A stretch of DNA of 64,000 nt from the NCBI GenBank assembly GCA_035292885.1, contig DATDPG010000019.1, positions 59,570 through 123,569 on the forward strand. The letters run 5' to 3'. Within the stretch, counting starts at the first letter, position 1; every line of letters begins with the position of its first letter. Under the pieces are notes generated by a model. It saw only the letters and a program-made list of their open reading frames with translations. It did no database searches and was not told where the DNA came from. A program made the translations under genes and the position numbers. The DNA is from Bdellovibrionota bacterium (GTDB lineage Bacteria; Bdellovibrionota_G; JALEGL01; DATDPG01). Shown here in pieces: positions 21,716 through 45,719 of this stretch.

Positions 21716-21719
21716 TGCG

Positions 21720-26427: not shown

Positions 26428-28017
26428 GTGAAGCGTTCGGCCCAGGTCGTTCAACCGGTACCGCCTTCTGGGGAGGTGGGGCGGGAGTATCCGGGCTTAT
26501 ACGAAGAACTCGACCAGCTGCGACGAAAGCGGTTGACGCTGGTGGCTACCGTCGGCGCGTTGATGTGCCTCACGATTCAAGTGATCAACTTCTGGACCCA
26601 AGCCGGCCCGCGGATCTATCCGCGGATGGAACCGGAGATCCTCGATCGGGCCACACTGCTCTTTCACGCCGCTTCGTTTCTTTCAGCCGCTTTCCTGTTT
26701 CGAATTCGTTCGCTTCAGACACAGACGGTTCTCGCTCTCGATCTCCTCTTGTTTGGGTTGAACATTCTCGCTCGATCCCTTGCGACGATCTGCATCGTTG
26801 AAACGGGCGATCATTTTCCGGGAATCGAGGGTATTTCCCTTGCGGTGATTTTGCATGGGGTATTCGTTCCGACCGGTATCACGATACCGATTGTGCTCGG
26901 CGCCTTGGCCACGATCTCCTTCCCGTTGGCCCAAATCGCGGGTTTACACTGGTTCGACTCGATCGCCGCACATTGGCAACAAGTAAGTGGGGCGGAGCCG
27001 TTTGCGTTCTTGCTTACTTTGAACACGCTTACGATCGCCTTTTTCGCCTTTCTCGGCGTTCTGGCCAACCGCGTTTTTTACGGCCTCGCCCGGGACGCCT
27101 ACCGCGCCAAACAGCTTGGGAATTATCTCATTGAAGGGGAACTCGGTTCGGGCGGGATGGGAAAAATTTTGATCGGACGGCATCGTCTGATGCGCCGGCC
27201 GACGGCGATCAAAGTTTTGCGGGCCGAGTTTTTGGGCGGGCCGGAAGCCTTGGCTCGTTTCGAGCGCGAAGTCGAACTGGCGTCAAAGCTTACGCATCCC
27301 AACACAATCGCCATATATGATTTCGGACGTTCGGCCGACGGAACCTTTTACTACGCCATGGAAATGCTCAAGGGGTTAAACCTCCAGGAACTCGTGGATC
27401 AATACGGTCCTCTTCCCTCGCCGCGGGCCGTGCATATCGTAAAGCAAATTTGCGGATCGCTGGCGGAAGCGCATTCGATGGGTGTCGTCCATCGCGACAT
27501 TAAACCGAGCAATATTTTTCTCACGCAGCGCGGAGGTCTGGACGACTTCGTCAAAGTCATCGATTTCGGTTTGGCCAAACAGGTCGCCACGCCCGACGTG
27601 CCGGGTGAGGGCCTTACGGAGGCCGGGCGTCTGTTCGGCACGCCGCATTTTATGGCGCCGGAGACGGCATACGGAGCCGATCGAGCGAGTCCTCAGTCCG
27701 ATATCTACAGCCTGGGCGCGGTCGCTTATTGGCTTGTAACCGGAAAGCGGCTCTTCGACGGCACTCCGGCGGAAATATTGGCCGCGCATGTGAAGACGGT
27801 ACCGAAGCCGCCTTCAAAAGTTTCAGAGGTTCAGATTCCGGCCTCACTCGAACAGACGATACTTACCTGCCTAAAGAAAAAACCGGAGGAGCGACACAAA
27901 TCGGCGATGGAAATCTTCACCGCGCTGGACGGCATCGAAGGGACATCACGTTGGTCAAACGCACAAGCGAGAGAGTGGTGGGAGATCCACCATCCGGGTC
28001 TGTTCACGCATCTTTGA
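26428..28017 (+). CDS. Membrane Ser/Thr protein kinase (N-terminal ~6-TM domain + Hanks kinase)
   Basis: LGSGGMGKILIG, AIKVLR, HRDIKPSNIFL, DFGLAK, GTPHFMAPE. Paralog of 30270..31850. Its 3' end overlaps the convergent gene by 14 nt. Confidence 0.85.
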   Translation: MKRSAQVVQPVPPSGEVGREYPGLYEELDQLRRKRLTLVATVGALMCLTIQVINFWTQAGPRIYPRMEPEILDRATLLFHAASFLSAAFLFRIRSLQTQTVLALDLLLFGLNILARSLATICIVETGDHFPGIEGISLAVILHGVFVPTGITIPIVLGALATISFPLAQIAGLHWFDSIAAHWQQVSGAEPFAFLLTLNTLTIAFFAFLGVLANRVFYGLARDAYRAKQLGNYLIEGELGSGGMGKILIGRHRLMRRPTAIKVLRAEFLGGPEALARFEREVELASKLTHPNTIAIYDFGRSADGTFYYAMEMLKGLNLQELVDQYGPLPSPRAVHIVKQICGSLAEAHSMGVVHRDIKPSNIFLTQRGGLDDFVKVIDFGLAKQVATPDVPGEGLTEAGRLFGTPHFMAPETAYGADRASPQSDIYSLGAVAYWLVTGKRLFDGTPAEILAAHVKTVPKPPSKVSEVQIPASLEQTILTCLKKKPEERHKSAMEIFTALDGIEGTSRWSNAQAREWWEIHHPGLFTHL

Positions 28018-30256
28018 GTAATTCTTTGAGAGCAGATCGTTCTTCGTCCGAGGCAAAGAGCGTGGCTCCGGTCTTTAGAAGGTCGGAAACGACATGGTCG
28101 ATCGGTCGAACGGTTTTTCGCTTTTGTTCATCGCTCAGATCGCCGATAAACGGCCACAGTCCCTTTTTCAGATCGGCGGGAAGGACCTGCTCCAGATATT
28201 CGAGGGCGAAGCTCCTGAGCTTTTCGTTCTCGAGAAGAATTCCATAATAGGCCGCCCGAACCGCCTCGGGCTCCAGCACCAGCGCCAACATACGGAAGGT
28301 ATGCTCGATCCCGAGCTCCCCTCGGCGTCCCACCCGTTCGGACACGAGATCATCCTCTTCCGGCTCGGTTTCATCCAAAAGCCGGTGCAGTTCCCAGACC
28401 GGCTTTCCACGGCTGACTTCCCCTTTCAAGGCTTCCCACACACCCGTCTTCCAATTTGTCTCCGACACCGGAAGGCCATGCTTTCGGCGGTTGGCTAAAG
28501 CGATCGCCGAACGATATCGAACTTCGAACCGTGAGTCTCCCAGAGCCACGACAAGCGCCTCATCCGCTTTGGCGATCGGAACTTTCGCCAGGACACGGGG
28601 GATTCTCCTGCGGATGACGAAATCGTTGTTTTCGTCCCGGAGAATCCCCGCCAACACGTGGAATCCGCCAGCCCCGACTCGAACCAAAGCGTGCGTGACA
28701 AGATCCTGAAGATCTTTTTGTGCCAGGAGACGGACGAGAGTCTCCGCATGGCTTTCATTCCAGTCCGTTTTCTCCATCAGCGCTTTTCGAACCTCGGTGG
28801 GATTTTTGGATTGAATCCGTTCCAATGTCGTGCTCTTCGTTGGCGTGACCGGCGCTTGAGAGACTTTGGCTGCACCCGAGGGTGGAAGGAGACCTCGGGC
28901 CTCCAAGTCGGCGGCTATACCCAGCCGGCTGAAGGTCGCCGTCAAAAGCCCTCTCCCCTCAAATCGGGCATCCGCCAGCATTCGTTCCGGTTCCGCCTTA
29001 TCCCGCAGCTGTTGAACGAGCGTCTCAAAATACTTCCTTCCGATTTGCCGGCTCAGCCCCAAGAAACCGAGGGCTGAGACTCCCACAAGAATCGAAAGGT
29101 ATTTGGAGGGAAGGCCTCCCAAGGTGATGCATAGAAAAATGAGTCCCGATCCGGCCCCTTCGGCAGCCGCGTCGACCAAAGAATCAATGAAGGTCTTCGT
29201 TTTTCGCCGGACCTGCGTGGGAAGAGGGATGTACACAACTTCGACGGCCGACCGAAAAATGGATTTCCGGATCGAATTGTCCGCGCCGCGCGCCAACGTG
29301 GCCGCTATTAATCCGGGCAAGAGAAAAAGCCCGGTGGAGCCGGCCAGCAAAACCATCGGCAGAACTGCGAACGTGGTCCCGACACCCGTCCTCGCCAAAA
29401 GCGGCGCTGTAACAACGACCTGAAGAAGAAGAGAAATAAGGCCGGTCCAACCGTAGAAGCTCCCGAAAAACCCGGCCAGCTGTTCCCTCGACTGCAAGGA
29501 AGCTCGAACTTGTTCCTTGAATTGATAGTCGAGGAGCGTGCTCGCTAACGTTGCCGCGAAAACGATTGAAGCCAACGTCCGCAGATGCTCGTTCCGCCAT
29601 ACGAGATGCAAGCTCTCACGCGTACTGGTCCGTTCGCCCTCCTTTTCCTTAGGGTCCATGTCCTTTCGCGCCGGAAGCAGGACTTGCAGAAGCAAAAAGA
29701 GGCCGACAAGCCCAATTAACGCCGGGATCATTTGAACGAGGCCGATCTGTTTGATCAGCGGCTTGATGGACGTACCCAGAGTGAGGGCGCCGATGGTCCC
29801 TCCGGCGCTGATTAACGCAAACAAACGCTTGGCGCGGCGAATCGGAAAAAATTCCGCCGTGACCACCCAGAAGCCGGAGGTCAAGACGAATGCGCCCAGC
29901 GCCGTCCAGAGGTAAAAGACAACCACGGCGGAAGCATTTTGCGTCGCAACCGGCCAAAGTGCGAGAAGGCCCATCGCGAATAGAAACACCGCGTAACGAA
30001 GGACACGTTGAGCTCCGTACCGGGCCATAAGTTTGGAAAACGTCCCAATCGTTGGCAACGCCAGAACCACGACGGCGGTCGTGATATACGGGAGCGTCTT
30101 GACGTCGAATGTGCCAAGGTAGAGGGCCTCACGAAGGGAGCGCCCGAGAATCATCATTCCGACGACGAAAAACGCGCCGAGAAAACAGAGAGCAACCGTA
30201 GGGAACTCGCCCGGCCTTATGTCAAGCCAACTTGTGAGCCGCTGGGCGGGTTTCAT
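28004..30256 (-). CDS. MFS/TLC-like (nucleotide-transporter-like) permease fused to a C-terminal HEAT-repeat domain
   Basis: N-terminal region of about 420 aa with about 12 TM helices (IRPGEFPTVALCFLGAFFVV...LREALYLGTFDVKTLPYI). C-terminal soluble region has HEAT-like repeats (IPRVLAKVPIAKADEALVVALGDSRFEVRYRSAIALA). Confidence 0.55.
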   Translation of the reverse strand: MKPAQRLTSWLDIRPGEFPTVALCFLGAFFVVGMMILGRSLREALYLGTFDVKTLPYITTAVVVLALPTIGTFSKLMARYGAQRVLRYAVFLFAMGLLALWPVATQNASAVVVFYLWTALGAFVLTSGFWVVTAEFFPIRRAKRLFALISAGGTIGALTLGTSIKPLIKQIGLVQMIPALIGLVGLFLLLQVLLPARKDMDPKEKEGERTSTRESLHLVWRNEHLRTLASIVFAATLASTLLDYQFKEQVRASLQSREQLAGFFGSFYGWTGLISLLLQVVVTAPLLARTGVGTTFAVLPMVLLAGSTGLFLLPGLIAATLARGADNSIRKSIFRSAVEVVYIPLPTQVRRKTKTFIDSLVDAAAEGAGSGLIFLCITLGGLPSKYLSILVGVSALGFLGLSRQIGRKYFETLVQQLRDKAEPERMLADARFEGRGLLTATFSRLGIAADLEARGLLPPSGAAKVSQAPVTPTKSTTLERIQSKNPTEVRKALMEKTDWNESHAETLVRLLAQKDLQDLVTHALVRVGAGGFHVLAGILRDENNDFVIRRRIPRVLAKVPIAKADEALVVALGDSRFEVRYRSAIALANRRKHGLPVSETNWKTGVWEALKGEVSRGKPVWELHRLLDETEPEEDDLVSERVGRRGELGIEHTFRMLALVLEPEAVRAAYYGILLENEKLRSFALEYLEQVLPADLKKGLWPFIGDLSDEQKRKTVRPIDHVVSDLLKTGATLFASDEERSALKELLKDA

Positions 30257-30269: not shown

Positions 30270-31850
30270 CTACGCCGCCTCGGCGAAGTCGACCGGCTGG
30301 CGATGAAGCGACCACCACTCCCTCGCCTGATTCTGCGTCCAGAGTCTGTTGGGTTCACAGGTTTCAAGCGCACCGAGGAACTCGTCCATATTTTGAAAGC
30401 GATCTTCGGGCTTCTTGGCCAGACACCGAAGAACGAACCGGTCCAACGCTTCGGGAATGGCGATCTCGGAGAGTTCGGAAGGTGGTTTAGGGTCGGTCTT
30501 GGCGTGATCGACGAGAAGCTCGACGTTGGACGACGCGGCAAAAAGCGGCTGTCCCGTGAGCAACCAGAAGGTCACCGCTCCCAGATTATAGATATCGGCA
30601 CGATGATCCACTTTCGATGAGCCGTACACCATCTCCGGCGCGATGTACCGAGGGGTCCCGAAAATCACTCCGGTCTTCGTCAAGTGGGAGGCTCCGTCAA
30701 TTTTCATCTCTTTGGCCAGACCGAAATCCAGAACCTTTACGAAATCGTAAATGCCACCCCGTTCCGTCAGAAAAATATTCGCCGGCTTGATATCGCGGTG
30801 AATGATGTCCTTGTTGTGAGCTTCACCGAGCGAGCCGGCGACCTGACGGAGAATATGAATGGTACGAGCGGCCGGCAGGGGACCGTATTTCTCGACGATC
30901 TCCTGAAGGTTTAGGCCGTCCAGGAACTCCATCACGTAAAAAAATTTGTTGTCGTCCGTCCGTCCGAAATCATAAATTGAAATCGTATTGGGATGACTGA
31001 GTGTCGAGGCCAGTTGAACCTCCCGTTCGAAACGTTGGATCGCCGCTCCGGAATCGTCGTCGCCCGGCACAAGCATCTTTAATGCGGTCGGCCGGTGCAT
31101 CATGGCGTGATGGGCGATATAGACCTTTCCCATGCCGCCGCTCCCGATCTCTTTTTCCAGGATGTAATTGCCGACTTGCTTCGCTTGATGGAGGTCCTTT
31201 CGCATGTTGTAAAGCGTCTTTGTGACCAGAGCCGAGACAAGACCATATATCGCGATTTGAATCGCTTGCGCCGGTGTGGCTCCGACCATCGCGTCGTATC
31301 CTCCACGCGTCTCCCAAAAGGTTTGGACGGAAGGGAACCAGAGATAGGACAAGAATCGCATGACGACGAAACCGAGTGTTGCCCAAACGCCCATGCTGAT
31401 CTGGCAACTCAAGAGACAGGGAACAAATGCCGCGTGTACGAAAAGTATCAATGAAATCGGAAAAAGTGGAGCCTCGGCCGGAAATGCGATGGCCCCAACC
31501 CACGTAGCCAGCAAAAGGTTGAAATGGAATACAACGTTATCGATCGTGCGGAGGGTCCCCGCTCGCCAATCCTTCAAGGAACGTAGAAAAAGCAGTGCTC
31601 CGGCAAAAGAAGCGGCATGAATCCATTTGGAAATCAGAACCCAATTCGGCGCGATCACACTTTCCCATTGAACCGGGCCCCACAAGTATTTTGTAATAAC
31701 CCAGCCGATCACACTGAGCGTCAGGCCCAAATAGGAGACGAGAATCAGGCGCTGATGAAGAAGCCCGCACCTCTCCTTCTGAAACGAGTCGCTCGTCTGG
31801 GCGGGCGACGGTTCCTTTTTCTTACAGCAAAGGGGCATCGTGATCGGCAT
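30270..31850 (-). CDS. Membrane Ser/Thr protein kinase (paralog of 26428..28017)
   Basis: IGSGGMGKVYIA, ALKMLV, HRDIKPANIFL, DFGLAK, GTPRYIAPE. The N-terminal polytopic domain is collinear with the other kinase. Lies 13 nt upstream of the transporter-HEAT gene. Confidence 0.85.
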   Translation of the reverse strand: MPITMPLCCKKKEPSPAQTSDSFQKERCGLLHQRLILVSYLGLTLSVIGWVITKYLWGPVQWESVIAPNWVLISKWIHAASFAGALLFLRSLKDWRAGTLRTIDNVVFHFNLLLATWVGAIAFPAEAPLFPISLILFVHAAFVPCLLSCQISMGVWATLGFVVMRFLSYLWFPSVQTFWETRGGYDAMVGATPAQAIQIAIYGLVSALVTKTLYNMRKDLHQAKQVGNYILEKEIGSGGMGKVYIAHHAMMHRPTALKMLVPGDDDSGAAIQRFEREVQLASTLSHPNTISIYDFGRTDDNKFFYVMEFLDGLNLQEIVEKYGPLPAARTIHILRQVAGSLGEAHNKDIIHRDIKPANIFLTERGGIYDFVKVLDFGLAKEMKIDGASHLTKTGVIFGTPRYIAPEMVYGSSKVDHRADIYNLGAVTFWLLTGQPLFAASSNVELLVDHAKTDPKPPSELSEIAIPEALDRFVLRCLAKKPEDRFQNMDEFLGALETCEPNRLWTQNQAREWWSLHRQPVDFAEAA

Positions 31851-31927: not shown

Positions 31928-33238
31928 TTGATTCAGTCCGGAGGAAGGTCTAAAAATTACAAATTGATTCCAAGGGCTTACACGGTTCTTTTGGGGATCC
32001 TCTGCACGATGACGCCTGCGGTCGCGGAAACCGTACCCGCGCCGATCTCCGGAACAGAACCGGAAACCCCGGTCGTCATCCAGGAAAAGGAACCTCGCTG
32101 GCCCAAAATCCTCGCTTTTCCCTTGGATCTTCCACCGACGGTTGTTCGCGGCGTCGGTCTCCCTTTCTCCATGTTCGCGAATTGGGCCGAGGAGACGAAC
32201 CTGCCCCTTCGGGCGCTGGAGTTTTTTTCCAACGATGACCGAACGGCGTATTGGTACCCGACCTTTCGAATCGGCGGTAAGGGAGGCGCATTTTTCGGCG
32301 CCGGAGGAAAGCACCGAGACCTTTTCGGGAGGGGATACAGCGGTTCGGCGCTCGCGAATGTTTCGTTAGGCCTCGATCTCGATGCCAAACTTTCCTTCAC
32401 GCATCCTCATCTCGGAAACAGCGATGTCGCCGGAGGTTTGGCCGCAACGTATTACCGGCGGCAACTGGAGGAATACTACGGCATCGGCAACGATTCCCGG
32501 GCGGAAGATTCCCGGAAATTCGAAGGGCGTCTTTTATATTTGTCCGCGCCGCTTGGCGGACAATGGGGTCGTCATTTCAATTGGGACGCGGCGGCGAAGT
32601 ACGCGGTTCTTGAGCAAGATGAGGCTTTCCCTGGAGATTTAAGCGGCAATTTTCCGTCCAACGAACTCTTCGGATTGGGCGAGTCGATCTCGGGGGGAGA
32701 CTTCGGCTTTGGTCTTCGTTGGGACGACCGGGATTTTAAAGGAGCGCCCGGGAAAGGGACGGTGATCAAGGGTTCGTTCAACGGCTTTGTTGGAGAGAAC
32801 GATTTTCGTTTTATTCGGACCAAAGCGGCGTTCAGCCGTTTTCTGACGCTCCGAAAACGAGGGCGAACGCTCGGTTTCGGCGGACGGTTTGAGTGGGCGG
32901 CTACGCCCGGGGGCGGCGAAATTCCGTTCACTTTCGTTCCATACTTGGGCGGAAGCGGAAATTTTCGCGCCTACGACGATTTTCGGTTCCGAGACAACGC
33001 GCTGTTTATGCTGATTAGCGAGTACCGTTATCCGCTCTGGCGGTACGCCGACATGGCGCTCTTTTTTGAAAGCGGCCGTGTCGCGGGCAGCCCGAGAGAT
33101 CTAAGTTTCCACGATCTGCACTACTCGTACGGCGCTGAAATTCGTTTTCGGACGCTCGACATCGCCTTTTTTCAAATTCTCATCGCTCACGGGGAGGACG
33201 GGTTCCGCGCGACGATGTCTCTGAACCAAAGTCTATGA
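31928..33238 (+). CDS. Omp85/BamA-superfamily-like outer-membrane barrel (short, without an obvious POTRA array)
   Basis: Signal-like AYTVLLGILCTMTPAVA. PYLGGSGNFRAYDDFRFRDNALFMLISEYRYPLW...FFESGRV resembles the lGG..lRGY loop-6 region of surface-antigen barrels. Confidence 0.5.
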   Translation: MIQSGGRSKNYKLIPRAYTVLLGILCTMTPAVAETVPAPISGTEPETPVVIQEKEPRWPKILAFPLDLPPTVVRGVGLPFSMFANWAEETNLPLRALEFFSNDDRTAYWYPTFRIGGKGGAFFGAGGKHRDLFGRGYSGSALANVSLGLDLDAKLSFTHPHLGNSDVAGGLAATYYRRQLEEYYGIGNDSRAEDSRKFEGRLLYLSAPLGGQWGRHFNWDAAAKYAVLEQDEAFPGDLSGNFPSNELFGLGESISGGDFGFGLRWDDRDFKGAPGKGTVIKGSFNGFVGENDFRFIRTKAAFSRFLTLRKRGRTLGFGGRFEWAATPGGGEIPFTFVPYLGGSGNFRAYDDFRFRDNALFMLISEYRYPLWRYADMALFFESGRVAGSPRDLSFHDLHYSYGAEIRFRTLDIAFFQILIAHGEDGFRATMSLNQSL

Positions 33239-34989
33239 ACGCACCCTTTTTTCGCACGGTCCTGATCGTTTTATCCGTCACGGGTTGCACGCATCATTCG
33301 CCTGCGCCGATTCTCACGCAGCACCAAATCGCCGACGATCGGAAGCCGATCGCCCCGGTCAAGGAGCGAACCGACTTGAAATATGGCGAAGTCGCCGATC
33401 GAAACACGTTCGAGCGACTTGCACGGGTCGCGGACGTTCGAACCTACCTAACGGGCGTAGGAAATAGCCTGGGCGGTGACTGGGGCCCCGAAGCCCTCAA
33501 CGCGAACTCGTTCGACGAAGTCGCCGACTCCAGCTGGTTTACGAATCGGAATGCACGCCAGGAGGTCGCTCTCGATATTCTTCGAGACGGCCCGCCGCCG
33601 GCGATTCACCTGTCGACCGTAGGGCCACTCGCCATTATCAGCGGCAAGGGATCGGGGGATATTCCGGGATTCATCGTGGCGGACCCAAACAACCAGCGGT
33701 TCCTTCTGAAGTTCGATTCGAGCGAATATTGCGGCCTATCGACGTCGACCGACGTCATCTCCAGCCGTTTCTTGTATGCCGCCGGTTACAATACTCGGGA
33801 AACACGGATCGAGCATATCGATCCGGCTCGATTCGTTCTCGATCCGAAAGCAAAAACCAAAGACCGCTTCGGGAAGAAGGTTCCGATGGATCAGGAGGCG
33901 TTTGCTCGCCTGATCGCCCGGCTTCCCGGCTGCCGGAAAGACGGAAAAGTTCGAACGATGGCCAGTCGCTTTTTGGAAGGGAAACCTGCCGGCCCGTTCT
34001 CCTATCAGGGTCGACGCGCCGACGACCCCAATGACAGGCTTCCCCATCAACACCGGCGGGAGTTGCGCGGTCTCGTGGTTCTGGCGTCATGGATCAACAA
34101 CACCGACTTTCAGGATTACAACACGCTCGACATGTTCAAGGAGGCGGGCGATGGGAATGGGCATCTCGTCCATTACTTGCTCGACTTCGGCGGATCCTTC
34201 GGCCACGGGACGCTCCACCCGAAACAAAATTACCAGGGCCATATTCATTTTATTGATTTCGAGGAAGCAGGATTAAATCTTCTGACGTTCGGACTTCGCG
34301 ATCCCGTCTGGGCGCAAGATTTCCCAATTCGGTATCGGTCGATCGGAAACTTTCGGGCCGACAACTTCGACCCATCGGAGTGGCGGCCGAGCAATCCCCA
34401 TCCGGCCCAGCAACAAATGACCGAACGAGACGGATTCTGGGGGGCGAAGCTGGTGGCCTCTTTTTCCGATGAACAGATCCGCACCGCCGTCCGGGCCGCC
34501 GAGCTTCCCGAAGATGGGGCCGAAGAGGAGATGGTTCGAATTCTAAAAAGTCGGAGGGACACGATCGCGAAGTACTGGTTTTCAAAGGTCGGAGCTCTCG
34601 ATCGTTTTGTCATCGAAGGGGACGTCCCCACCGTCCGATTTGTAGACTGGAACCAGGCGGGGCTCTGGCGGCCGACGCAGGCTGTGTCGTATCGCTGGCA
34701 TCTTCGAGGGAGGAAAATCTATCGTAGCGGTACGACACTCAAACCTCGGATCGAATTATTCGCAACGAAGGAGGCATTCGAAACTTGGCAGAAACAGATC
34801 CGTAAGAGCGCCGATCGTTACCTGCGACTGAACATCACGCCGATGATCGAAGATCCCGTCAGCCTGCCGTACGAGAAAGTTGCAACAACCGCTCGCGCGG
34901 CGGGCCACTCGACCGAGGCGAGCATTTTCCTCCATGATGACGGTCGATTCTATTGGGTTGGAACCGATCGAAAGCGATCGTCGAACTAA
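33235..34989 (+). CDS. Lipoprotein of unknown function with protein-kinase-like catalytic motifs
   Basis: ATGA overlap with the upstream barrel gene. MNAPFFRTVLIVLSVTGC lipobox. RFLLKFD, WINNTDFQDYN (D-x4-N) and LLDFGGSFG (DFG). Confidence 0.6.
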   Translation: MNAPFFRTVLIVLSVTGCTHHSPAPILTQHQIADDRKPIAPVKERTDLKYGEVADRNTFERLARVADVRTYLTGVGNSLGGDWGPEALNANSFDEVADSSWFTNRNARQEVALDILRDGPPPAIHLSTVGPLAIISGKGSGDIPGFIVADPNNQRFLLKFDSSEYCGLSTSTDVISSRFLYAAGYNTRETRIEHIDPARFVLDPKAKTKDRFGKKVPMDQEAFARLIARLPGCRKDGKVRTMASRFLEGKPAGPFSYQGRRADDPNDRLPHQHRRELRGLVVLASWINNTDFQDYNTLDMFKEAGDGNGHLVHYLLDFGGSFGHGTLHPKQNYQGHIHFIDFEEAGLNLLTFGLRDPVWAQDFPIRYRSIGNFRADNFDPSEWRPSNPHPAQQQMTERDGFWGAKLVASFSDEQIRTAVRAAELPEDGAEEEMVRILKSRRDTIAKYWFSKVGALDRFVIEGDVPTVRFVDWNQAGLWRPTQAVSYRWHLRGRKIYRSGTTLKPRIELFATKEAFETWQKQIRKSADRYLRLNITPMIEDPVSLPYEKVATTARAAGHSTEASIFLHDDGRFYWVGTDRKRSSN

Positions 34990-35075
34990 GTCAGGCGCCA
35001 CGTAAGCTGCTGGAATTACTTACGATTTAAATACCTTAAAAGTCAGCCGCATAAATCGTAAAATAGAAATACTCC

Positions 35076-35861
35076 TTGTTCCGCCATTCCAATACGGGTC
35101 GTATTCTGCTGTTTTTGACAGTCCTGATCTCCATCACTTCGGCGCAGGCGGCGGAAGATTTTTCACCGGGATCCTTTGAACTGCCGCCCCATCCTCGTTT
35201 TACGGCATTCAGACAGAGCCTATTGGCCGAACAAGCAGCCCTCATCGCCGGAACAACCTTCGCCGCATCGTTTCTGGCGTATCGCCTGGTGGATACACCG
35301 CTCGGGGTCGACGGAAGCGCCGGCGCTTTAGGACCCGCCAGTCAATGGATCTCGGATATCGGCAACTATCTTCCGTTTGCGCTGCCGGTCGGGTTTTTTG
35401 CCGCGGGCCAGTTTTTCGAAAAGGGAAGTCTGGAGAGGTCCGAGGCATTTAAGACGGCCCAGGAGTTGGCCGAAGCGATCGCCCTAACCTACGGAACGAC
35501 GATAGGACTCAAGTACGCCGTGGGCCGAACGAGACCGAACGGTCAGGATGATGCATCGTTCCCCTCCGGTCACGCGTCGATGGCCTTTGCTGCGGCCGGC
35601 GTCCTCGCGCAACGATTTCCTTGGTACGTTGGCGTCCCCTCCGTGGCGTTCGCCAGCGCAGTTGGGTTCACCCGGTTGGACCTGGGCAAACACTACCTCT
35701 CCGATGTCGCTGTCGGAGCAGGATTGGGTCTCTTCTTCGCCACCACGGTTCACCTCTACCATTCCAATTTGTCTTTTATGGCCCATAAGCCATCGCAGCA
35801 GACGGTTGTCCCGATGGTGGCAAAAAACATTTTAGGTCTCAGCTTCACGGGGACCTTTTAG
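35076..35861 (+). CDS. PAP2-family (acid) phosphatase, membrane/periplasmic
   Basis: KYAVGRTRP, PSGH and TRLDLGKHYLSDV give the three PAP2 motifs. N-terminal signal ILLFLTVLISITSAQA. Confidence 0.85.
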   Translation: MFRHSNTGRILLFLTVLISITSAQAAEDFSPGSFELPPHPRFTAFRQSLLAEQAALIAGTTFAASFLAYRLVDTPLGVDGSAGALGPASQWISDIGNYLPFALPVGFFAAGQFFEKGSLERSEAFKTAQELAEAIALTYGTTIGLKYAVGRTRPNGQDDASFPSGHASMAFAAAGVLAQRFPWYVGVPSVAFASAVGFTRLDLGKHYLSDVAVGAGLGLFFATTVHLYHSNLSFMAHKPSQQTVVPMVAKNILGLSFTGTF

Positions 35862-35955
35862 TCTTCGATTTGGAAATCGGCCGACGTCGCTGCTGACTCA
35901 GGTGATCAAGTAAACCCGCTTGATTTTAGCGGTTTATGTGGTATAACGCCTTGCG

Positions 35956-37113
35956 TTGGTATCCACAAAAAAAATCATCTTTTTCTTATTCGCTTTGATA
36001 ACCTTTGCACCCCCCTCCCAGGCGGAGGGGCCGGTCCTGGGTATCGGCGATGTCTTAAATCTTCTTACCGAGCTGCGTAGGTTCCATCAGAATTGCATTC
36101 CGGACGATGGCAGAGAGGTTTCCGAGGATACCCACGCGTTTTTAAATGAATGGAACAACCTCTCCACTCTGCCGTTCAACGCAATCGACTACCCGGCTCT
36201 GGCCGCAAAGATGGGGCCGAGTCTCTTACGAATGGGGAAGCTTCTCCACAGATACACCTATGGCGGGTCCTATGACGAACTGAATCCCGGTCATTCACGG
36301 GAGTTCGGCAACGGTACAAGGAGTCGCAATTTCAGGGGACGCCGCAATCATGAACTCAGAGATCCGGAGAATTGCGGCCCGCCGGTCGTCGACAGAATTC
36401 TCGCTGAGAAACAATGGGACAGAGTCCCCGGTTTCGACCCCAGCGTTTGGCGGCAACGTAATTCATTGGTAACGCAAGCCAGATCGCTCCTTCAACCGAG
36501 TCTAATCGTAACGGCGACGACAGCAGCGGCTGTCGCTGCGCTCTCTAGTCTCGCTTTACGTCAACCATCCGCTCTCCTCTCTCAAGCGAGTTCACCAATA
36601 ATTATGCCCAGGCTAACGGACCAGATCGTTCCAGACGCCGAGATACGACGTGACCCACCAGAAGTGTTCCTCGCTCTTTGCAGCGCTATCACATCGAATG
36701 GCCGGTGCGAACCGGAGCTCGATATAAACTGGCAAAAGCTTTACGTGTTGTATGCCTCGCGGGCGATCAACGACTTTTCCGAAGTGGTGACGAAGGAAAT
36801 CGAATTCCGGGAGAAAATCCTACAAGGTTACCGACCGACTCTCGCCCAACTGCTGGAGATGTACGCGCGCCGAGATGTTCTGGGTCAGATCAAGATCTGC
36901 GACGGAAACATCGAGAGCTGTTTGCCTCCTGAAAAGGGTTTTCATTATCAAAAGGCCGCACAGATTCTTCAATGTCTTGATAACGATGCGGAAGGCTGTC
37001 GTGAACTTCCGGAAGGCTTCGGGAAGCTCAGCCGGGGCTACGTTGATAAAGCGATCAAACGACAGTTCGGAATAAGACCTTTTCCATCTCGCCTTCCTCC
37101 GAAGTGGAGCTAA
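35956..37113 (+). CDS. Secreted hypothetical protein
   Basis: 385-aa ORF with a TTG start and signal peptide KKIIFFLFALITFAPPSQA. No motif recognised. The region looks more AT-rich than its flanks. Confidence 0.5.
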   Translation: MVSTKKIIFFLFALITFAPPSQAEGPVLGIGDVLNLLTELRRFHQNCIPDDGREVSEDTHAFLNEWNNLSTLPFNAIDYPALAAKMGPSLLRMGKLLHRYTYGGSYDELNPGHSREFGNGTRSRNFRGRRNHELRDPENCGPPVVDRILAEKQWDRVPGFDPSVWRQRNSLVTQARSLLQPSLIVTATTAAAVAALSSLALRQPSALLSQASSPIIMPRLTDQIVPDAEIRRDPPEVFLALCSAITSNGRCEPELDINWQKLYVLYASRAINDFSEVVTKEIEFREKILQGYRPTLAQLLEMYARRDVLGQIKICDGNIESCLPPEKGFHYQKAAQILQCLDNDAEGCRELPEGFGKLSRGYVDKAIKRQFGIRPFPSRLPPKWS

Positions 37114-37129: not shown

Positions 37130-38365
37130 CTACGGTAAGTGCTTCGCATTCGGACTCGCCGGAGCCAGGCTCGTCAGAAACGCATAGAGATCCGCCATCT
37201 CCCGGCCCGTCAGTTTGGGCCACTTCAAGTGTTGCTCGGTATGCTTCTCTTGCATCTCGGTGGAGTGGTTCCACATCGCCGCGACCATGCCCATGGGGGA
37301 GTTCAATTTGCTGATGGCGGCGAAATCTTTCGCCGCGTTTCGTCCCTTGCCGTTTAAGGAGTGGCACGTCAGGCATTCTCGGTCCCTAACGAGATTCTCC
37401 CCTGTGGCGGGGCTCCCCGGTGCGTCCTCCAGTTTCATGCTGTAGAGATACGCGATGACGTGCGCCATCTCCCCCTCCTTGAAATCCGGGAACGTGAGTT
37501 TCTTTTCTTTCATCATCTCCCACATGGCGGGGCCGTGATTCCACATCTTGGCCGCGATCTCGGTCACGGGATAGTTGAAATCGACCTCAGCGAAATCGGG
37601 CGCCGTGGTTGGTGGTTTGGCACGGAACGAATGGCAATGCATGCACCCTTTTTCGGTCAAGAGTTCCTTCCCCTTTGAGGGATCGCCGAGGTCATAGTCG
37701 CTGGCCGGGAAGACGGTCGGGGCCATATACGAACGGATTCCGGCGGCCAGGGCGTCCATCTCGTCCTCTTCGATGACGGGCCGATCGATCTTGTACTTCT
37801 CAAAAAGCGCCAGCATTTTCGGGCCATGGTTCCACATCGCTTCCGCCAGTCGGATGGGGGAGATGTATTCCTTTTTCGCGCTGATGTCGGGAGCGATTCG
37901 GGCGCCTTCCCCTCCAAATTGATGACAAGAGAAGCATCCCTTTTCCTTCAGCACCTTTCTTCCCATCGATTCCCTCACCGGTTCCGCCATGTACCGGATG
38001 AAAGAGAGATAGCGAACCAGCTCGGACATCTCCTTCGGCGTGAACTTCGGAAAGGCATACCCTTTGGTCTCGATCTTCTTCGCCATTCTCGGAAGGTGAT
38101 TCCACATGACGGAAGAAAGCTCGAGGTATGTACCGTAAAACTTGCGGTTGCCCAGGTCGGGACCGCCGCGGCCCCCCCTCCCGTACACGGAATGGCACTG
38201 CGCGCATCCCTTCTGATGGAAGACTTCCCGACCCGGCCACGGTGAGGCCGAAGTGGCTGCTTCCTGCGCCCGAAGGGCGAAAATGGAGCCGGATGACATC
38301 AGGAGATACGCGAGAATGAATTGCAGGAGGCGGATGCAGTTTCTCCGGGTAGTGGACATAGTCAC
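37130..38365 (-). CDS. Tetrahaem cytochrome c built from four tandem class-I-like domains (paralog of 21720..22931)
   Basis: Signal LLQFILAYLLMSSGSIFALRA. CAQCH, CFSCH, CMHCH, CLTCH, each followed by MWNHxxxM. Confidence 0.85.
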   Translation of the reverse strand: MTMSTTRRNCIRLLQFILAYLLMSSGSIFALRAQEAATSASPWPGREVFHQKGCAQCHSVYGRGGRGGPDLGNRKFYGTYLELSSVMWNHLPRMAKKIETKGYAFPKFTPKEMSELVRYLSFIRYMAEPVRESMGRKVLKEKGCFSCHQFGGEGARIAPDISAKKEYISPIRLAEAMWNHGPKMLALFEKYKIDRPVIEEDEMDALAAGIRSYMAPTVFPASDYDLGDPSKGKELLTEKGCMHCHSFRAKPPTTAPDFAEVDFNYPVTEIAAKMWNHGPAMWEMMKEKKLTFPDFKEGEMAHVIAYLYSMKLEDAPGSPATGENLVRDRECLTCHSLNGKGRNAAKDFAAISKLNSPMGMVAAMWNHSTEMQEKHTEQHLKWPKLTGREMADLYAFLTSLAPASPNAKHLP

Positions 38366-38516
38366 CTCGTCGTTTCTTGTGAGATTAAAGCCCTGCTCCG
38401 TTTATCTCATGCATGACAAGAGGGTGAACGGCTGTATATGATTTAGATCAGCTGCCGGCGGACAACCGTCTGGAGAGCAATCGACGTTGCGCTCGTGGGG
38501 TCGGCCACGAGACAAG

Positions 38517-38768
38517 CTACTTTGCGGTGCCTTTCTTCCGAAAGATTCGAATAGGAGTTCCCAGCTTGTATAGCTCGCCCACTTTGCAGATGTCTTCGCA
38601 TTGGACGGAGATGCTCGCGCCCACGACTTTTTCGACGTCCGGGATTTCCTCCCATTCCTCCTCCAGGCCGCTGATTTCGGTCGCGACGCGGTCGAGTGTT
38701 GCGTCCGGAACGAGCTTTCCGAAGTGTTTCGTCAAAACCGTTCGGATTTTATCGGCGTCCCGGGGCAT
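38517..38768 (-). CDS. Small acidic hypothetical protein
   Basis: 83-aa ORF between vapC and the tetrahaem gene. No recognisable motif. Confidence 0.4.
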   Translation of the reverse strand: MPRDADKIRTVLTKHFGKLVPDATLDRVATEISGLEEEWEEIPDVEKVVGASISVQCEDICKVGELYKLGTPIRIFRKKGTAK

Positions 38769-38828
38769 AGAATCTCTCCTTCGCTTTCCATTCTCACCGT
38801 TGTTTGCGTATTTTAAATATGACCAGGA

Positions 38829-39257
38829 TCATTCTTTGAAGGGATTGAGGATTCGCAAGTCCTCTACGTGAAAACCATGCTGCAGGTCTTCGGTATAGAG
38901 CGCGTCACAATTCGAGGCCAGTGCCTGAGCCACAATGGCCGCATCCCAGAAAGACCAGCGATAACGATGCCGAAGGCGACACGCGTGGACGAAGATTTCC
39001 TGAGTTGTCACGACCGGGTCCCATGAAAAGTAACTACGACAGACATCGACGGCATCCTCGAAGGAAAGAGGTTTCGGGATCTTGGTCGCGACCGTGACGA
39101 GAAATTCCTGCAACACCTGCAGGCTCGTCGCAGCCGATTGGTTTTCCCAATGGGCCTTTACGAGATCCGAAGATCGATTTGATTTACCGGAATCACTTCG
39201 ATCATACGCATAGACGAGAATATTCGTGTCAAAGAAAGCGCGCCTATTTTCGGACAT
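38829..39257 (-). CDS. vapC: PIN-domain toxin VapC
   Basis: RAFFDTNILVYAYD (N-terminal acidic PIN motif), plus a later FWDAAIVAQA and ...YTEDL. Overlaps the upstream antitoxin gene by 14 nt. Confidence 0.85.
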   Translation of the reverse strand: MSENRRAFFDTNILVYAYDRSDSGKSNRSSDLVKAHWENQSAATSLQVLQEFLVTVATKIPKPLSFEDAVDVCRSYFSWDPVVTTQEIFVHACRLRHRYRWSFWDAAIVAQALASNCDALYTEDLQHGFHVEDLRILNPFKE

Positions 39258-39489
39258 GCAGGGCGTCCCTCGACCAGGTCACCTTTCCCACTTCATACAG
39301 GCCCTTCGCCATTCTTCGCATTTCCTTGCGAAACGCACGTTGATGAAGCGATTTCCGCGAAATGAGTTCGTGGGCGTATTTGGCAAGAAGCCTGGAGACA
39401 GACTGGTTGGCTTCGGCCGCGGCGATTCGGAGCTTTCGCAACAACGGGCGGGGGAGGGTCAACGTGATGTTTTCGAGATCTCTCTTCAT
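39244..39489 (-). CDS. vapB: Ribbon-helix-helix antitoxin VapB
   Basis: Start at MKRDLENITLTLPRPLLRKLRIAAAEANQSVSRLL (RHH beta-strand + helix pattern). Confidence 0.7.
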   Translation of the reverse strand: MKRDLENITLTLPRPLLRKLRIAAAEANQSVSRLLAKYAHELISRKSLHQRAFRKEMRRMAKGLYEVGKVTWSRDALHVRK

Positions 39490-39551
39490 TACACTATTAT
39501 CGTGTAACACGATTATCGTGTCAATGCCTCGACCGGGTGGTGCCAAGACAG

Positions 39552-40793
39552 TTACTTGCGCGGCGGAGGAAGCGAACGGATTTTGAGAGCCAGAGCGATG
39601 ACCAACAACGTGAGGAATATTGTGCTGATTCCGAGGCCGACTCGGCGGGTTTTGTTTTCGCGGAGAGCGGCTTTCCCCAAAGCGATGGCTTGATCCACAG
39701 CTTTTCGTCCCTCCGTGATCTTCGCCTCCACCCCCGGCATGGAAAAGGAGTGAATCTCGGTTCGTGCCTGAATCAACGCCTGCCGGGCATTTTGCATGCT
39801 GTCCTCGGCTTCGGTGACGTCCATTCCCTTGTCCCTCGCTTCTTCGATAATCTTCGAAGCTTCGGCCGAATAATTCTTCAAAGAGCCGATCATCTTGGAG
39901 AACGCCATGGCCACGGCGGCGCCTTTATCCCCCTCTTTGTGGCACTTGGCGCAGATCGCGCCTTGCTGCGTCCCGATCCGGTCATCTGAGATGTGAACGA
40001 TCAGATGATTGCCGTGGCAGGAAATGCATTCGCCGTAGGGATCCTTCTGCAGGGCTTTCGCCATGGGACTCTTGAGAAACAGCTCGGCGTTGTGGACGTG
40101 GCAGGAGCCGCAAATATGGGCGATGGATTTCAGTCCCGGCGGTGTGGCGCCGTGGTTGCCGTGACAATCGTTGCAGGCGGGAGCGCCCCGGACATCTCCT
40201 TTTTCAAGCAGAGCTTTCCCATGCACACTTTTCGCGTACTCGGCATAGACGGTCGTCGAGATCTTGTACGGCTTCATATATTCGGGGTCGGCGTGGCAAT
40301 GGGCGCACATCGTCGGCAGGTTCACCGCGTAAACCGGAGACTTCGCGTCGTTGACTTTCCGGATGTTGTGCACGCTGTGGCAGCTGACGCATTCGGCGAC
40401 TTTGGTGTCCCCCTGTTTCAGTTTCTTGCCGTGCTGGCTGGTCAGGTAGAGCTCATACTGATCGACCCGAAGCATCGGGTTGTATTTCTTCATGAAGACC
40501 GGGTTGCTGTGGCATTTCGCGCAAAGTTTCGGAATGTCCGCCCTCTTCGGCGCCCCTTTGAAGCCTTTCTTCGGGTCCATTGAGATATCTTGGTCGTCCG
40601 AGGTCGGATCTCCGCCGTGGCATTCGTTGCACCCGATTCCCGCCGTGGCGTGCACGTCATCCTTCCAGCGGGTGGAGGGCTCATCTTCCATCGACTGATG
40701 GCAGATAAGGCATTGGCCGCCGGGCAGCGCAGCAGCTTCTTCGGCGTATGCCGACGAAAGTACGTTCAGCAGAATGAATAAAATCCAACTCAT
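39552..40793 (-). CDS. Nonahaem cytochrome c with C-terminal TM anchor (partner of the Rieske/cyt b complex)
   Basis: Start MSWILFILLNVLSSAYA in an ATGA overlap with the cyt b stop. CLICH, CNECH, CAKCH, CVSCH, CAHCH, CNDCH, CGSCH, CISCH, CAKCH. C-terminal GLGISTIFLTLLVIALAL. Confidence 0.85.
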   Translation of the reverse strand: MSWILFILLNVLSSAYAEEAAALPGGQCLICHQSMEDEPSTRWKDDVHATAGIGCNECHGGDPTSDDQDISMDPKKGFKGAPKRADIPKLCAKCHSNPVFMKKYNPMLRVDQYELYLTSQHGKKLKQGDTKVAECVSCHSVHNIRKVNDAKSPVYAVNLPTMCAHCHADPEYMKPYKISTTVYAEYAKSVHGKALLEKGDVRGAPACNDCHGNHGATPPGLKSIAHICGSCHVHNAELFLKSPMAKALQKDPYGECISCHGNHLIVHISDDRIGTQQGAICAKCHKEGDKGAAVAMAFSKMIGSLKNYSAEASKIIEEARDKGMDVTEAEDSMQNARQALIQARTEIHSFSMPGVEAKITEGRKAVDQAIALGKAALRENKTRRVGLGISTIFLTLLVIALALKIRSLPPPRK

Positions 40794-41881
40794 GCGAGTA
40801 CGTGTCCGGCGATGGTCATTCCTATAAAAAAAAGCAATAGCGCCATCCCGATGCCGCGGAGAATCTTTGTGGTCGATTTCTTTTTTCCGCAGTCGATCCA
40901 TGGAATAAGCAGCCAAAACACGCCGATCCCGCCGAAGATCATGTGTCCGACCAGCTCCCCGTCAATCGGCCCCACCTTGGCGGGCAAGAACTTGAGCGTC
41001 TGGAACATGAAAAGGAAATACCACTCCGGTTTGATTCCGGCCGGGGCGGAGGCGAAAGGATCGGCTTTCCTTCCCAGTTCCCAGGGGAAGAAGACCGCCA
41101 GGATCGCCAAAATATCGAGAATGATAAACCAAAGTAAAACGTCCCGGAGAAAGAAGTGCGGGAAAAACGGGATACTCTTCCGGTTTTCCGGGTGGCGTTT
41201 CCAATCTTCGGGCTCGTGCATTCCCTGGATCTGCACGAACAGCAAATGAATACCCAGAACGGAAGTGAAGATCGCCGGGAGGAGGGCGACATGCAAAGCG
41301 AAGAAGCGGGTCAGCGTAGAGCCGGTGACTTCTTCTCCGCCGCGGAGAACATGCATGAGGGTTTTCCCGATGTACGGCACGACGCCGATCATGTCGGTGC
41401 CGACCTTGGTGGCGAAGAAGGAAAGTTCGTTCCACGGCAGCAGGTAACCCGAAAACCCGAACGTCATGACGATTCCCAGAAGGGCGAGCCCCGTGACCCA
41501 GCTGAGTTCGCGGGGTTTCCTGTAAGCTCCCATGAAAAAGACGCTGAACATGTGGATGATGACGGCCAGGACCATCAAATTGGCCGACCAGCTGTGGATC
41601 GACCGGATCAGCCAGCCGAAAGGCACTTTCGATGTGATAAATTGAACGCTCTCGAAGGCCGCGTCGGCGCTCGCCTTGTAATAGAACATCAGGAGAATGC
41701 CGGTGGAGAGTTGGACGATGAAGAGAAAGAGGGAAACTCCGCCGAAGTAATACCAGATCGCGGTCTTTCCCATCGGCACTTCTTTGTGCCGCCCCCACTC
41801 AATCAGCTGTGCGATGGGATATCGGTCGGACAGCCATTCGATCGCGAGAGCGGCCCTACGCTTTAAGTGAGATGTAAACAT
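40790..41881 (-). CDS. Cytochrome b (fused b6 + subunit-IV-like) of a bc-type complex
   Basis: YYFGGVSLFLFIVQLSTGILLMFYY, RSIHSWSANLMVLAVIIHMF, GYLLPWNELSFFATKV and the PEWYFLFMFQTLK (PEWY) motif. Confidence 0.9.
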   Translation of the reverse strand: MFTSHLKRRAALAIEWLSDRYPIAQLIEWGRHKEVPMGKTAIWYYFGGVSLFLFIVQLSTGILLMFYYKASADAAFESVQFITSKVPFGWLIRSIHSWSANLMVLAVIIHMFSVFFMGAYRKPRELSWVTGLALLGIVMTFGFSGYLLPWNELSFFATKVGTDMIGVVPYIGKTLMHVLRGGEEVTGSTLTRFFALHVALLPAIFTSVLGIHLLFVQIQGMHEPEDWKRHPENRKSIPFFPHFFLRDVLLWFIILDILAILAVFFPWELGRKADPFASAPAGIKPEWYFLFMFQTLKFLPAKVGPIDGELVGHMIFGGIGVFWLLIPWIDCGKKKSTTKILRGIGMALLLFFIGMTIAGHVLA

Positions 41882-42308
41882 CTTCTCCCTGAACGTGGAC
41901 TTCGTACGTGTCGAGCGGGTGAGGCGGCGGGCCGGCCACATTGTTTCCGTTCAAATCGTATTGACCGTTGTGACAAGCGCACCAAATGCGCTCCATGTCG
42001 GGCCGGTACTGGACGATGCAGTCGAGGTGCGTGCATTTTCCCGTGAACGCGGCGAAACTGCCGTCCTTCTTGCGGACCAGCAGCGCCGGTTTGTTTCCGA
42101 ACTTGCAGATTTTCCCGCTGTTCGGGGGAATCTCGGAGACCGCAGCGACTTTCGCCGAAGAGACTTTGGCTTCGGTCTCCGCGACAGGAGTGAGGTAGCG
42201 AACGATCGGATAAAAGACGGACCCCACCCAGGCGAAACCGCTGGCCCCTAAAAGGGTGTTCAAGAATCCGCGTCGGGAGGTTTCGGTCGAGCTTCGAATC
42301 GGTTTCAT
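41856..42308 (-). CDS. Rieske [2Fe-2S] protein, Tat signal
   Basis: SRRGFLNTLLGASG. CTHLDC...CACHNGQY Rieske boxes. Confidence 0.9.
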   Translation of the reverse strand: MKPIRSSTETSRRGFLNTLLGASGFAWVGSVFYPIVRYLTPVAETEAKVSSAKVAAVSEIPPNSGKICKFGNKPALLVRKKDGSFAAFTGKCTHLDCIVQYRPDMERIWCACHNGQYDLNGNNVAGPPPHPLDTYEVHVQGEDVYISLKA

Positions 42309-42448
42309 TGAATTACAGTAACGAGATTTCGCCCCAAGAAAATGGAGGAGATTTTAGAGTGTTCCCTTGCTTCAATCCAGTTTTGAGGTCGACGAAGCGG
42401 AGTTTCGCAGGATCGGAAAGGTCGACCATGATCCAAATCAGCTTGAAA

Positions 42449-42604
42449 TTACGACGAACGGTTGATTTTTAACCACCGGTCTCGGAGCGCGGGGTTATTT
42501 CTCCAGACCTCAAAGATCATCCTTCGGTATCCTTCGAGCCAAAGAATAATCTGTTCAGGCGTGAGTTTGGGTGTTCGTCCCCAGTCATGAGTTGTTTTAG
42601 GCAC
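42449..42604 (-). CDS. Possible 51-aa small ORF downstream of the NTase-fold gene (below track cutoff)
   Basis: GTG start overlapping the NTase stop. Hand translation gives MPKTTHDWGRTPKLTPEQIILWLEGYRRMIFEVWRNNPALRDRWLKINRSS. It resembles the small protein at 23509..23691. Confidence 0.25.
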   Translation of the reverse strand: MPKTTHDWGRTPKLTPEQIILWLEGYRRMIFEVWRNNPALRDRWLKINRSS

Positions 42605-43094: not shown

Positions 43095-43236
43095 CGTTCG
43101 ATACTGTAACGAATCTGGGTAGAAATTCCCATTCGTCGCCTTGGGAGGATGGCGAAGGCCTCATCGGCGTGTAAAACCGATCGGACGGCGTCCCGCGGAA
43201 TCAAAGACTTTCCAAGATTCTCTCTCTAAGTATGGG

Positions 43237-45168: not shown

Positions 45169-45213
45169 ATCTCAGCTTGGCGGGCGCCGAAACATGAACT
45201 CATTCTGAGCCTG

Positions 45214-45588: not shown

Positions 45589-45650
45589 AGGCTTCCTCCA
45601 GTGTTTCTTTTTAGATGATGCCAAATTTACGAACATGATTCGGATCAATG

Positions 45651-45685
45651 AAATGAAAAGAGGGCCGGCCCGTATGGGCCGGCCC
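45651..45685 (-). terminator. Rho-independent-type hairpin inside the cytochrome gene string
   Basis: Perfect 10-bp GC stem gggccggccc / gggccggccc with a 4-nt loop (45662..45685). On the minus strand it is followed by TCTTTTCATTT. Confidence 0.6.
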
Positions 45686-45719
45686 CGTCAATCGCTCTGG
45701 ACGGTTCAAACTCTCGCGC

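Follow-up and report, generated by a model that had tools for sequence, protein, structure and literature searches.

The nearest described relatives of the kinase-like lipoprotein considered here are the atypical Ser/Thr kinases of the HipA and CtkA type (HipA_C, PF07804; H. pylori CtkA, PDB 3akj). HipA, CtkA, CotH and Fam20C are protein kinases; lipids or glycans are the targets of PI4K-II, MavQ and Fam20B. The lipoprotein is encoded directly behind an Omp85-superfamily barrel in a 64,000-nucleotide stretch of a Bdellovibrionota genome (contig DATDPG010000019.1, positions 59,570 to 123,569 of the forward strand); this stretch is called the window in what follows, and all coordinates refer to it. 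Two further families bear on the locus. One is the ‘noNterm’ class of Omp85 barrels, whose function is poorly understood (PMC4104836; PMC11358297). The other is the clade of NTT-HEAT proteins, which are widespread in free-living bacteria and for which neither a function, nor a gene context, nor a characterised member has been reported (Major et al. 2017, PMC5381601). A review names the route of ATP into the periplasm as a question that still has no answer (PMC7432876).

Three genes follow each other on the plus strand of the window: the barrel gene (31928..33238; 436 aa, TTG start), the gene of the kinase-like lipoprotein (33235..34989; 584 aa) and that of a PAP2-superfamily phosphatase with a signal peptide (35076..35861; 261 aa). 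The stop codon of the first and the start codon of the second share the sequence ATGA (33235..33238), an overlap which is predicted to couple the translation of the two genes. An earlier note on this DNA had described these three open reading frames, the overlap and the coordinates of the lipoprotein motifs, all of which were confirmed exactly from the sequence. Each component falls into a known superfamily, and the functional model is one that we infer from genomes. The reading we favour, with somewhat less than even confidence, is that of a two-gene envelope module, in which a barrel without POTRA domains and an exported enzyme would carry out extracytoplasmic phosphorylation, fed by an NTT-type transporter and accompanied by a phosphatase.

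A barrel and kinase-like gene pair conserved across diderm phyla

The earlier note had tied the barrel gene to the lipoprotein gene, and this linkage was borne out in other genomes. Around the kinase-like gene, 80 loci were examined; 79 of them have a barrel homolog, which in about 75 lies directly upstream on the same strand. The naive gap between the two genes is -4 in nine loci, -1 in six and 0 to +6 in another 14, and on the contig of the closest relative the overlap is again 4 nt. The barrel and the kinase-like gene form a conserved two-gene core, with near-obligate adjacency across many diderm phyla. Apparent fusions of the two genes (L034, L053 and others) were rejected, as their large overlaps are artefacts of calling the longest open reading frame in GC-rich DNA. 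Some contigs carry the pair in two tandem or nearby copies (L122/L123 and L109), and two barrels are present in L022 and L042; since some contigs hold two copies of the pair, the module seems to have been duplicated within genomes.

The kinase-like family itself is large. A word-indexed search returned at least 1458 homologs, all annotated ‘hypothetical’, and in an exhaustive search, at E<=1e-3, the 50%-identity clusters numbered at least 4300, 1590 of them with E<=1e-30. It is found in at least 566 species (GTDB representatives), spread over the Latescibacterota, Nitrospirota, Gemmatimonadota, Acidobacteriota, Bacteroidota/Rhodothermota (the cultured Salinibacter among them), Zixibacteria, Calditrichota, KSB1, Myxococcota, Bdellovibrionota and others. 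Among cultured bacteria, candidates for carrying the module are Salinibacter, Nitrospira, Ca. Solibacter and relatives of Gemmatimonas. A large unannotated protein family is now defined across many diderm phyla. Export signals were counted in 120 homologs: a signal-like hydrophobic N-terminus is present in 109, whereas a lipobox is found in 52, from which the family appears to be exported but not always lipidated. These N-terminal signals support the extracytoplasmic targeting that had been predicted for the lipoprotein of the window.

To look for other partners, all neighbouring open reading frames were clustered without preconceptions, a search later widened to all 160 loci. In these 160 loci nothing emerged but genes for signalling proteins (histidine kinases with PAS domains, response regulators and sigma factors) and antisense shadow reading frames, and no further partner that would reveal a substrate; nor were there genes for lipopolysaccharide (LPS), lipid A or nucleoside salvage that recurred near the module. 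The contig of the closest relative carries a metallophosphoesterase (Metallophos), a Pkinase protein, a TLC-HEAT protein, the barrel and the kinase-like protein, and a Nitrospira locus (L002) carries PAP2, the barrel, the kinase-like protein, a TLC-HEAT protein (E=6e-134) and a Ser/Thr kinase (E=2e-146). In four Nitrospirota loci (L002, L009, L013 and L023, at about 7600-8700) the kinase-like gene is directly followed by a gene for a secreted protein of about 290 aa (cluster 23), which has no Pfam match and may be a lineage-specific extra partner in this phylum.

In the literature library that was searched, we found no description of the kinase family, of its pairing with an Omp85 barrel, or of a link between NTT-HEAT proteins and an exported kinase, and the impression of the earlier note that the locus has no described equivalent was upheld. 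Because the defining features of HipA toxin-antitoxin pairs, of the Fam20/CotH kinases, of two-partner secretion and of the BAM/TAM machines are not those found here, the system appears to be new as an assembly.

The kinase-like lipoprotein and its barrel

The lipoprotein begins with MNAPFFRTVLIVLSVTGC, in which the lipobox LSVTGC (33271..33288, plus strand) places the Cys at residue 18, with Thr at +2. Three parts can be distinguished in the mature protein: an N-terminal region (residues ~19-125), an atypical protein-kinase-like domain (~126-450) and an FN3-like beta-sandwich (~455-584). The kinase-like domain contains, in order, a glycine-rich loop GKGSGDIPGF (residues 137-146) followed by the beta3 strand RFLLKFD with K159 (33643..33717), a catalytic-loop equivalent WINNTDFQDYN (residues 286-296; 34090..34122), and H313 with the DFG-equivalent LLDFGGSFG (34171..34203; the motif itself covers residues 315-323, nt 34177-34203, and includes D317), all on the plus strand. 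The residues D291 and N296 of the catalytic loop are spaced as D-x4-N, the pattern also seen in HipA and PI4K. Just upstream of this loop lies the block DDPNDRLPHQHRRELRG (residues 263-279; 34021..34071, plus strand), which is rich in Arg and His and is specific to the family.

The conservation of these residues was followed in 206 homologs at ~32-51% identity. K159, D291, N296 and D317, the residues on which the suggestion of a kinase had been based, are each present in 206/206, and so are H313, R105, R275, R278, D399, W402, R440 and G323. Close behind come D161 (202/206) and the glycine-rich loop, at 98% or more (K138 203/206, G141 205/206, G145 202/206), and the alphaC position is acidic, either E or D, in 193/206. 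Within the Arg/His block, D264 and H271 are kept in 204/206, N266 in 200/206, D267 in 205/206 and R274 in 204/206. The kinase motifs lie far beyond chance. The Arg/His-rich block is a candidate site for an anionic substrate, and its invariant Arg/His cluster suggests a negatively charged component of the envelope, which could be a protein or a glycan, LPS or the head group of a lipid.

The AlphaFold2 model, built on an alignment of 52 sequences, has a predicted local distance difference test score (pLDDT) of 90.3 and a predicted template modelling score (pTM) of 0.90. It shows a helical and extended N-terminal region, then a kinase domain with the bilobal fold and the ordered beta3 Lys, catalytic Asp, metal-binding Asn and DFG Asp of the protein-kinase-like superfamily. 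In the structural comparison CtkA came first (13.9), followed by PI4K-IIalpha and Fam20 (12.4 each), CotH (12.1), actin-fragmin kinase (11.2), HipA-like kinases (11.0-11.2) and MavQ (10.6); the predicted model and these relatives support the proposed fold of the PI3/4K or HipA kind. At the level of sequence the relationship is much fainter. The window lipoprotein matched nothing in Pfam, NCBIfam or the PDB, also when the family profile was used, and gave no match to the HipA models (PF07804, PF20613) at E<=1. HipA_C was found below threshold in 7 of 52 family members (best E 0.026) and HipA_2 in 5 of the 52 (best 0.0046), and the Pfam models for Fam20, CotH and PI3/PI4 kinases (PF06702, PF08757, PF00454) had no significant match in the kinase-like protein. 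By these profiles and the model, the family is a new, distant branch of the kinase superfamily that lies nearest to HipA and CtkA.

It is worth pointing out where the family departs from these relatives. Unlike HipA and CtkA, it is exported through Sec or lipoprotein signals, is paired with an outer-membrane barrel, and has an extra N-terminal region, the invariant block DDPNDRxxHxxRRELRG and the C-terminal FN3-like domain. Its conserved neighbour is an Omp85 barrel rather than the HTH antitoxin of the HipB type that goes with HipA as a cytoplasmic toxin. It differs from Fam20C, Fam20B and CotH in having no detectable sequence homology to them, in its domain context and in its place in a bacterial envelope, and the ATP supplier proposed below would come from an unrelated transporter family (TLC/NTT).

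A kinase fold could also serve a specialised Omp85 assembly machine as a subunit that binds nucleotides, in an accessory or regulatory role, or carry out another chemistry such as AMPylation. BamA has accessory lipoproteins as partners, kinase folds have taken on AMPylation and glutamylation or, as pseudokinases, scaffolding (SelO, SidJ, Fam20A), and the 1:1 translational coupling of the two genes suggests a stable complex. However, all the residues for Mg-ATP binding and catalysis are invariant in the 206 homologs, which is atypical of pseudokinases, and the recurrent phosphatase partners described below point to a phosphate ester as the product. We regard this explanation as quite improbable.

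The barrel partner is also unusual. In its AlphaFold2 model, residues ~105-436 form a barrel of 16 strands (pLDDT >85 for the most part), preceded by an N-terminal segment of ~100 aa with pLDDT <50, in which neither a plug nor the beta-alpha-alpha-beta-beta unit of a POTRA domain is modelled. The protein has no match to the POTRA profile (PF07244), and the BamA model gives 34.9 bits against a cutoff of 297. A first, word-based search for its homologs gave only nine proteins, and a profile search was then used; among 30 homologs, 26 match PF01103 alone. The window barrel carries the L6-like loop LGGSGNFRAYDDFRFRDN and the lid-lock partner FFESGRV on strand 13, and in the homologs L6 keeps its motif (consensus LRGY, then FRFRD) and strand 13 its FxDxG partner. 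A 16-stranded barrel with (L/M)RG(Y/F/W) on L6 and an FxDxG lid-lock on strand 13 is what defines the Omp85 superfamily. The predicted model and the profile results support the short, POTRA-less barrel that the earlier note had described, and on both grounds the protein belongs to the ‘noNterm’ class. A signal peptide is predicted with cleavage at about AVA|ET. The public gene call (P0121; 409 aa, ATG at 32009) lacks it, and the signal peptide of the closest homolog (P0122) aligns with the upstream extension of the window reading frame; because a homolog-like signal peptide is found only in the extended frame, the gene truly starts at a TTG, either that at 31928 or the one in frame with it at 31964.

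These features invite comparison with TpsB/TpsA and BamA/TamA, with which the pair shares the 16-stranded barrel, the L6 and strand-13 lid-lock, and a partner gene in the same operon. Unlike BamA, TamA and TpsB, the window barrel has no POTRA domains, and unlike in two-partner secretion its partner has neither a two-partner secretion (TPS) domain nor any other Pfam domain. One may ask, then, whether the barrel moves the adjacent kinase across the outer membrane, so that its targets would be external (cells, prey, a host or polymers) and the links to a transporter and a phosphatase would be secondary. Every Omp85/TpsB member characterised so far assembles proteins or translocates them. A lipid anchor is missing from more than half of the kinase homologs, CtkA, which comes closest in structure, is a secreted kinase, as are CotH and Fam20C, and the window comes from a metagenome-assembled genome of the Bdellovibrionota. 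The noNterm barrels of Leptospira likewise adjoin and precede lipoprotein genes, and translocation has been proposed there (PMC11358297). Besides the missing TPS and POTRA domains, secretion is at odds with the common occurrence of the family in free-living lithotrophs and heterotrophs (Nitrospira, Salinibacter, Acidobacteriota), and it leaves unexplained the reciprocal linkage to an inner-membrane NTT homolog. There is also little ATP outside cells. Taken together, we find secretion or surface display unlikely.

The phosphatase slot

The PAP2 gene of the window encodes a protein that matches PF01569 with 51.9 bits against a cutoff of 27.2 and has the three motifs of the superfamily, KX6RP (KYAVGRTRP at 146), PSGH (at 163) and SRX5HX3D (TRLDLGKHYLSD at 199), as had been read from the sequence before. 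It has an N-terminal signal peptide and six moderately hydrophobic helices (Kyte-Doolittle 1.0-1.5), and may be either a soluble periplasmic protein or a membrane-embedded one. Its similarity to SepP, PgpB and LpxE in NCBIfam is weak, far below every equivalog cutoff.

In the earlier note this enzyme was the third member of a triad, and here the claim has to be divided. PAP2 was found in 13 of the 80 kinase-centred loci, directly adjacent in about seven of them, which rules it out as a member of the core. The idea of a partner phosphatase stood up better, since a calcineurin-like metallophosphoesterase, in most cases with a lipobox or a signal peptide, takes the same slot in 20/80 loci and is also present on the contig of the closest relative; either phosphatase is present in 29/80. 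As two unrelated families fill the position, a functional phosphatase slot is a better explanation than chance. PAP2 is an accessory, lineage-variable partner.

These counts also bear on the original proposal, in which the barrel, the kinase-like lipoprotein and PAP2 would be an obligate triad that remodels the phosphates of lipid A, phospholipids or glycans. PAP2 enzymes typically act on lipid phosphates, and the weak similarity to SepP, PgpB and LpxE fits with such a role. Among the proteins that the kinase resembles in structure are enzymes that phosphorylate lipids and glycans (PI4K-II, MavQ and the Fam20 xylosylkinase). PAP2, at 13/80 loci, shows an enrichment close to the module, and an outer-membrane protein (OMP)-like strand at the C-terminus of the module-linked enzymes suggests an association with the outer membrane. 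Yet PAP2 is missing from 67/80 loci and is often replaced by a metallophosphoesterase, which has no preference for lipid phosphates; the nearest relatives in sequence and fold, HipA and CtkA, are protein kinases; and the genes of LPS and lipid A do not recur nearby. An obligate triad of this kind seems to us distinctly unlikely.

The C-terminus of the window PAP2 (...NILGLSFTGTF; 35835-35858) resembles the beta-signal of OMPs. A terminal Phe is found in 19 of 23 module-linked PAP2 proteins, compared with 7% of background reading frames and 0/39 metallophosphoesterases, and these proteins end in an alternating-hydrophobic strand (GLTVHGRF, GLSVQF, GLSLRF, LLITYKF; loci L002, L009, L015, L023, L028, L033, L069, L086, L109, L135, L148 and others). 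The strand might dock on the seam of the Omp85 barrel, or mark an outer-membrane association of a helical enzyme. LpxT, LpxE and PgpB share with the window PAP2 the three catalytic motifs and an extracytoplasmic signal, but no OMP-like C-terminal strand ending in Phe is known in them.

The NTT-HEAT transporter and a proposed function

A stronger link than that to PAP2 is found outside the three genes first described. Divergent from the barrel gene, on the minus strand, lie a gene for a membrane-anchored Hanks-type Ser/Thr kinase (30270..31850) and, 13 nt downstream on the same strand, a gene of the TLC/NTT family with a C-terminal HEAT-repeat region (28004..30256; 750 aa), predicted to be an inner-membrane protein. 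The latter matches PF03219 with 61.7 bits (cutoff 21) and HEAT_2 weakly (E=0.015), and hydropathy gives about 12 hydrophobic segments; in relatives the TLC match is 47-78 bits and the HEAT_2 match has E about 1e-18. A profile match above cutoff, about 12 transmembrane segments and C-terminal HEAT repeats, with or without a cNMP-binding domain, are the architecture of the described NTT-HEAT fusions (PMC5381601), to which the link with an exported kinase and an Omp85 barrel is added here.

PF03219 homologs, all above cutoff, occur in 37/80 kinase-centred loci, counting neighbours within 6 kb, mostly directly downstream, often with HEAT and sometimes with cNMP-binding domains. The transporter adjoins the barrel-kinase pair both in the window and in the closest relative. 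The linkage was also scanned in the reverse direction on metagenome contigs; the full TLC-HEAT alignment was too divergent for this purpose, and the transporter domain of a closer subgroup was used, so that the figure applies to that subclade. Of the 37 TLC-centred loci with at least 5 kb upstream, 19 contained the barrel and the kinase, where a rough expectation for random placement in a genome of ~4 Mb is about 0.5%. The gene order in these loci is barrel, kinase, (Metallophos), (TLC), TLC-HEAT. The TLC/NTT-HEAT homolog is a commoner partner than PAP2, and a reciprocal one.

The transporter is often encoded in tandem, with a TLC-only protein of ~445 aa next to a TLC-HEAT(-cNMP) protein of ~900-1080 aa (L001, L004, L028, L033, L055, L066, L069, L071, L105, L109, L117, L118, L153 and L157), which points to two subunits or two specificities. 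Directly beside TLC-HEAT lie histidine kinases with PAS domains and response regulators (cluster 4, in 62/160 loci; L085, L083, L088, L154 and many other TLC-centred loci), some of them fused to phosphatase domains of the PP2C type; their recurrence hints that the transporter is under two-component control. The Hanks-type kinase of the window (PF00069, E=3e-46, with N-terminal transmembrane segments) is a possible cytoplasmic regulator of the system, and its membership is weaker, as homologs are found in 11/80 loci. A second membrane-anchored Hanks-type Ser/Thr kinase (26428-28017, plus strand; 529 aa) shares 42% identity with the first along its whole length and is encoded convergently with TLC-HEAT, whose 3' end its gene slightly overlaps, so that two paralogous kinases flank the transporter.

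The phosphorylation module that we favour could work as follows. The barrel would be a dedicated outer-membrane partner of the kinase, either anchoring it at the inner face or passing it to the surface, and the kinase-like enzyme would be an active ATP-dependent phosphotransferase outside the cytoplasm. Its ATP would be supplied by the co-encoded inner-membrane TLC/NTT(-HEAT) protein acting as an ATP-out/ADP-in exchanger, which may in turn be under cytoplasmic control, exerted through its HEAT or cNMP-binding domains and by the products of nearby genes for a Ser/Thr kinase or a two-component system. An extracytoplasmic phosphatase, PAP2 in the window and often a lipoprotein metallophosphoesterase elsewhere, would reverse the modification or recycle phosphate or nucleotide. 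The specific step in which NTT-HEAT would pass ATP outwards to the periplasm and take up ADP in return, feeding a barrel-docked kinase that acts with a phosphatase as a counterpart of the eukaryotic secretory-pathway kinases, is put forward with more reserve, as a possibility about which we are doubtful.

Several points weigh against this picture. The periplasm is usually regarded as being without ATP, ATP released into a compartment made leaky by porins would be lost, and kinase folds also carry out AMPylation or glutamylation or serve as scaffolds. In about half of the 80 loci no TLC gene lies within 6 kb, from which the transporter would have to be dispensable or encoded elsewhere. Phosphatase partners are present in only 36% of loci, and all characterised NTTs import nucleotides (PMC5381601). 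The last point also favours another possibility, that the NTT homolog imports a nucleotide or a phosphorylated product which the kinase-fold enzyme and the phosphatases have made or processed on the periplasmic side. The processing of nucleotides is a classic task of metallophosphoesterases and acid phosphatases in the periplasm (PMC7432876). Such scavenging, however, would leave a kinase in the periplasm in need of a phosphoryl donor, and the nucleoside-salvage genes that one would look for do not recur in the neighbourhood. Nor is an Omp85 barrel a nutrient channel, and we think scavenging very unlikely.

If the phosphorylation module is real, there would be regulated, ATP-dependent phosphorylation in a compartment generally held to be free of ATP, and the NTT-HEAT proteins of free-living bacteria and many ‘noNterm’ Omp85 barrels would gain a function; as it stands, both these transporters and the POTRA-less barrels (PMC4104836, PMC11358297) receive a concrete functional proposal. 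An exported, intact kinase together with its barrel and the reciprocal link to NTT makes the question of periplasmic ATP directly testable. Should the idea of ATP export prove mistaken, the obligate pair of barrel and kinase would still represent a new type of enzyme complex in the envelope.

A role in anti-phage defence was considered and rejected, as neither the barrel, the kinase-like protein, PAP2 nor the TLC protein had a match in PADLOC, and the Ser/Thr kinase had only generic matches to Hanks kinases. A scan for promoters and terminators gave two promoters against 3.9 expected and 20 terminators against 14.5, no better than shuffled sequence, and the boundaries of the operon are for this reason not fixed. 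Directly after PAP2 there is a reading frame of 385 aa with a signal peptide (35956-37113, plus strand), separated from it by a hairpin (35916-35932). It has no match in Pfam, NCBIfam or PADLOC, and none of the 80 related loci holds a homolog; on the latter ground it is probably outside the module. The module is surrounded in the window by respiratory genes (19851-22931 and 37130-49262), which do not recur in the related loci; they encode an NrfD-like membrane subunit, cytochrome b, and mono-, di- and multi-haem c-type cytochromes that include MtrC-like and Paired_CXXCH proteins.

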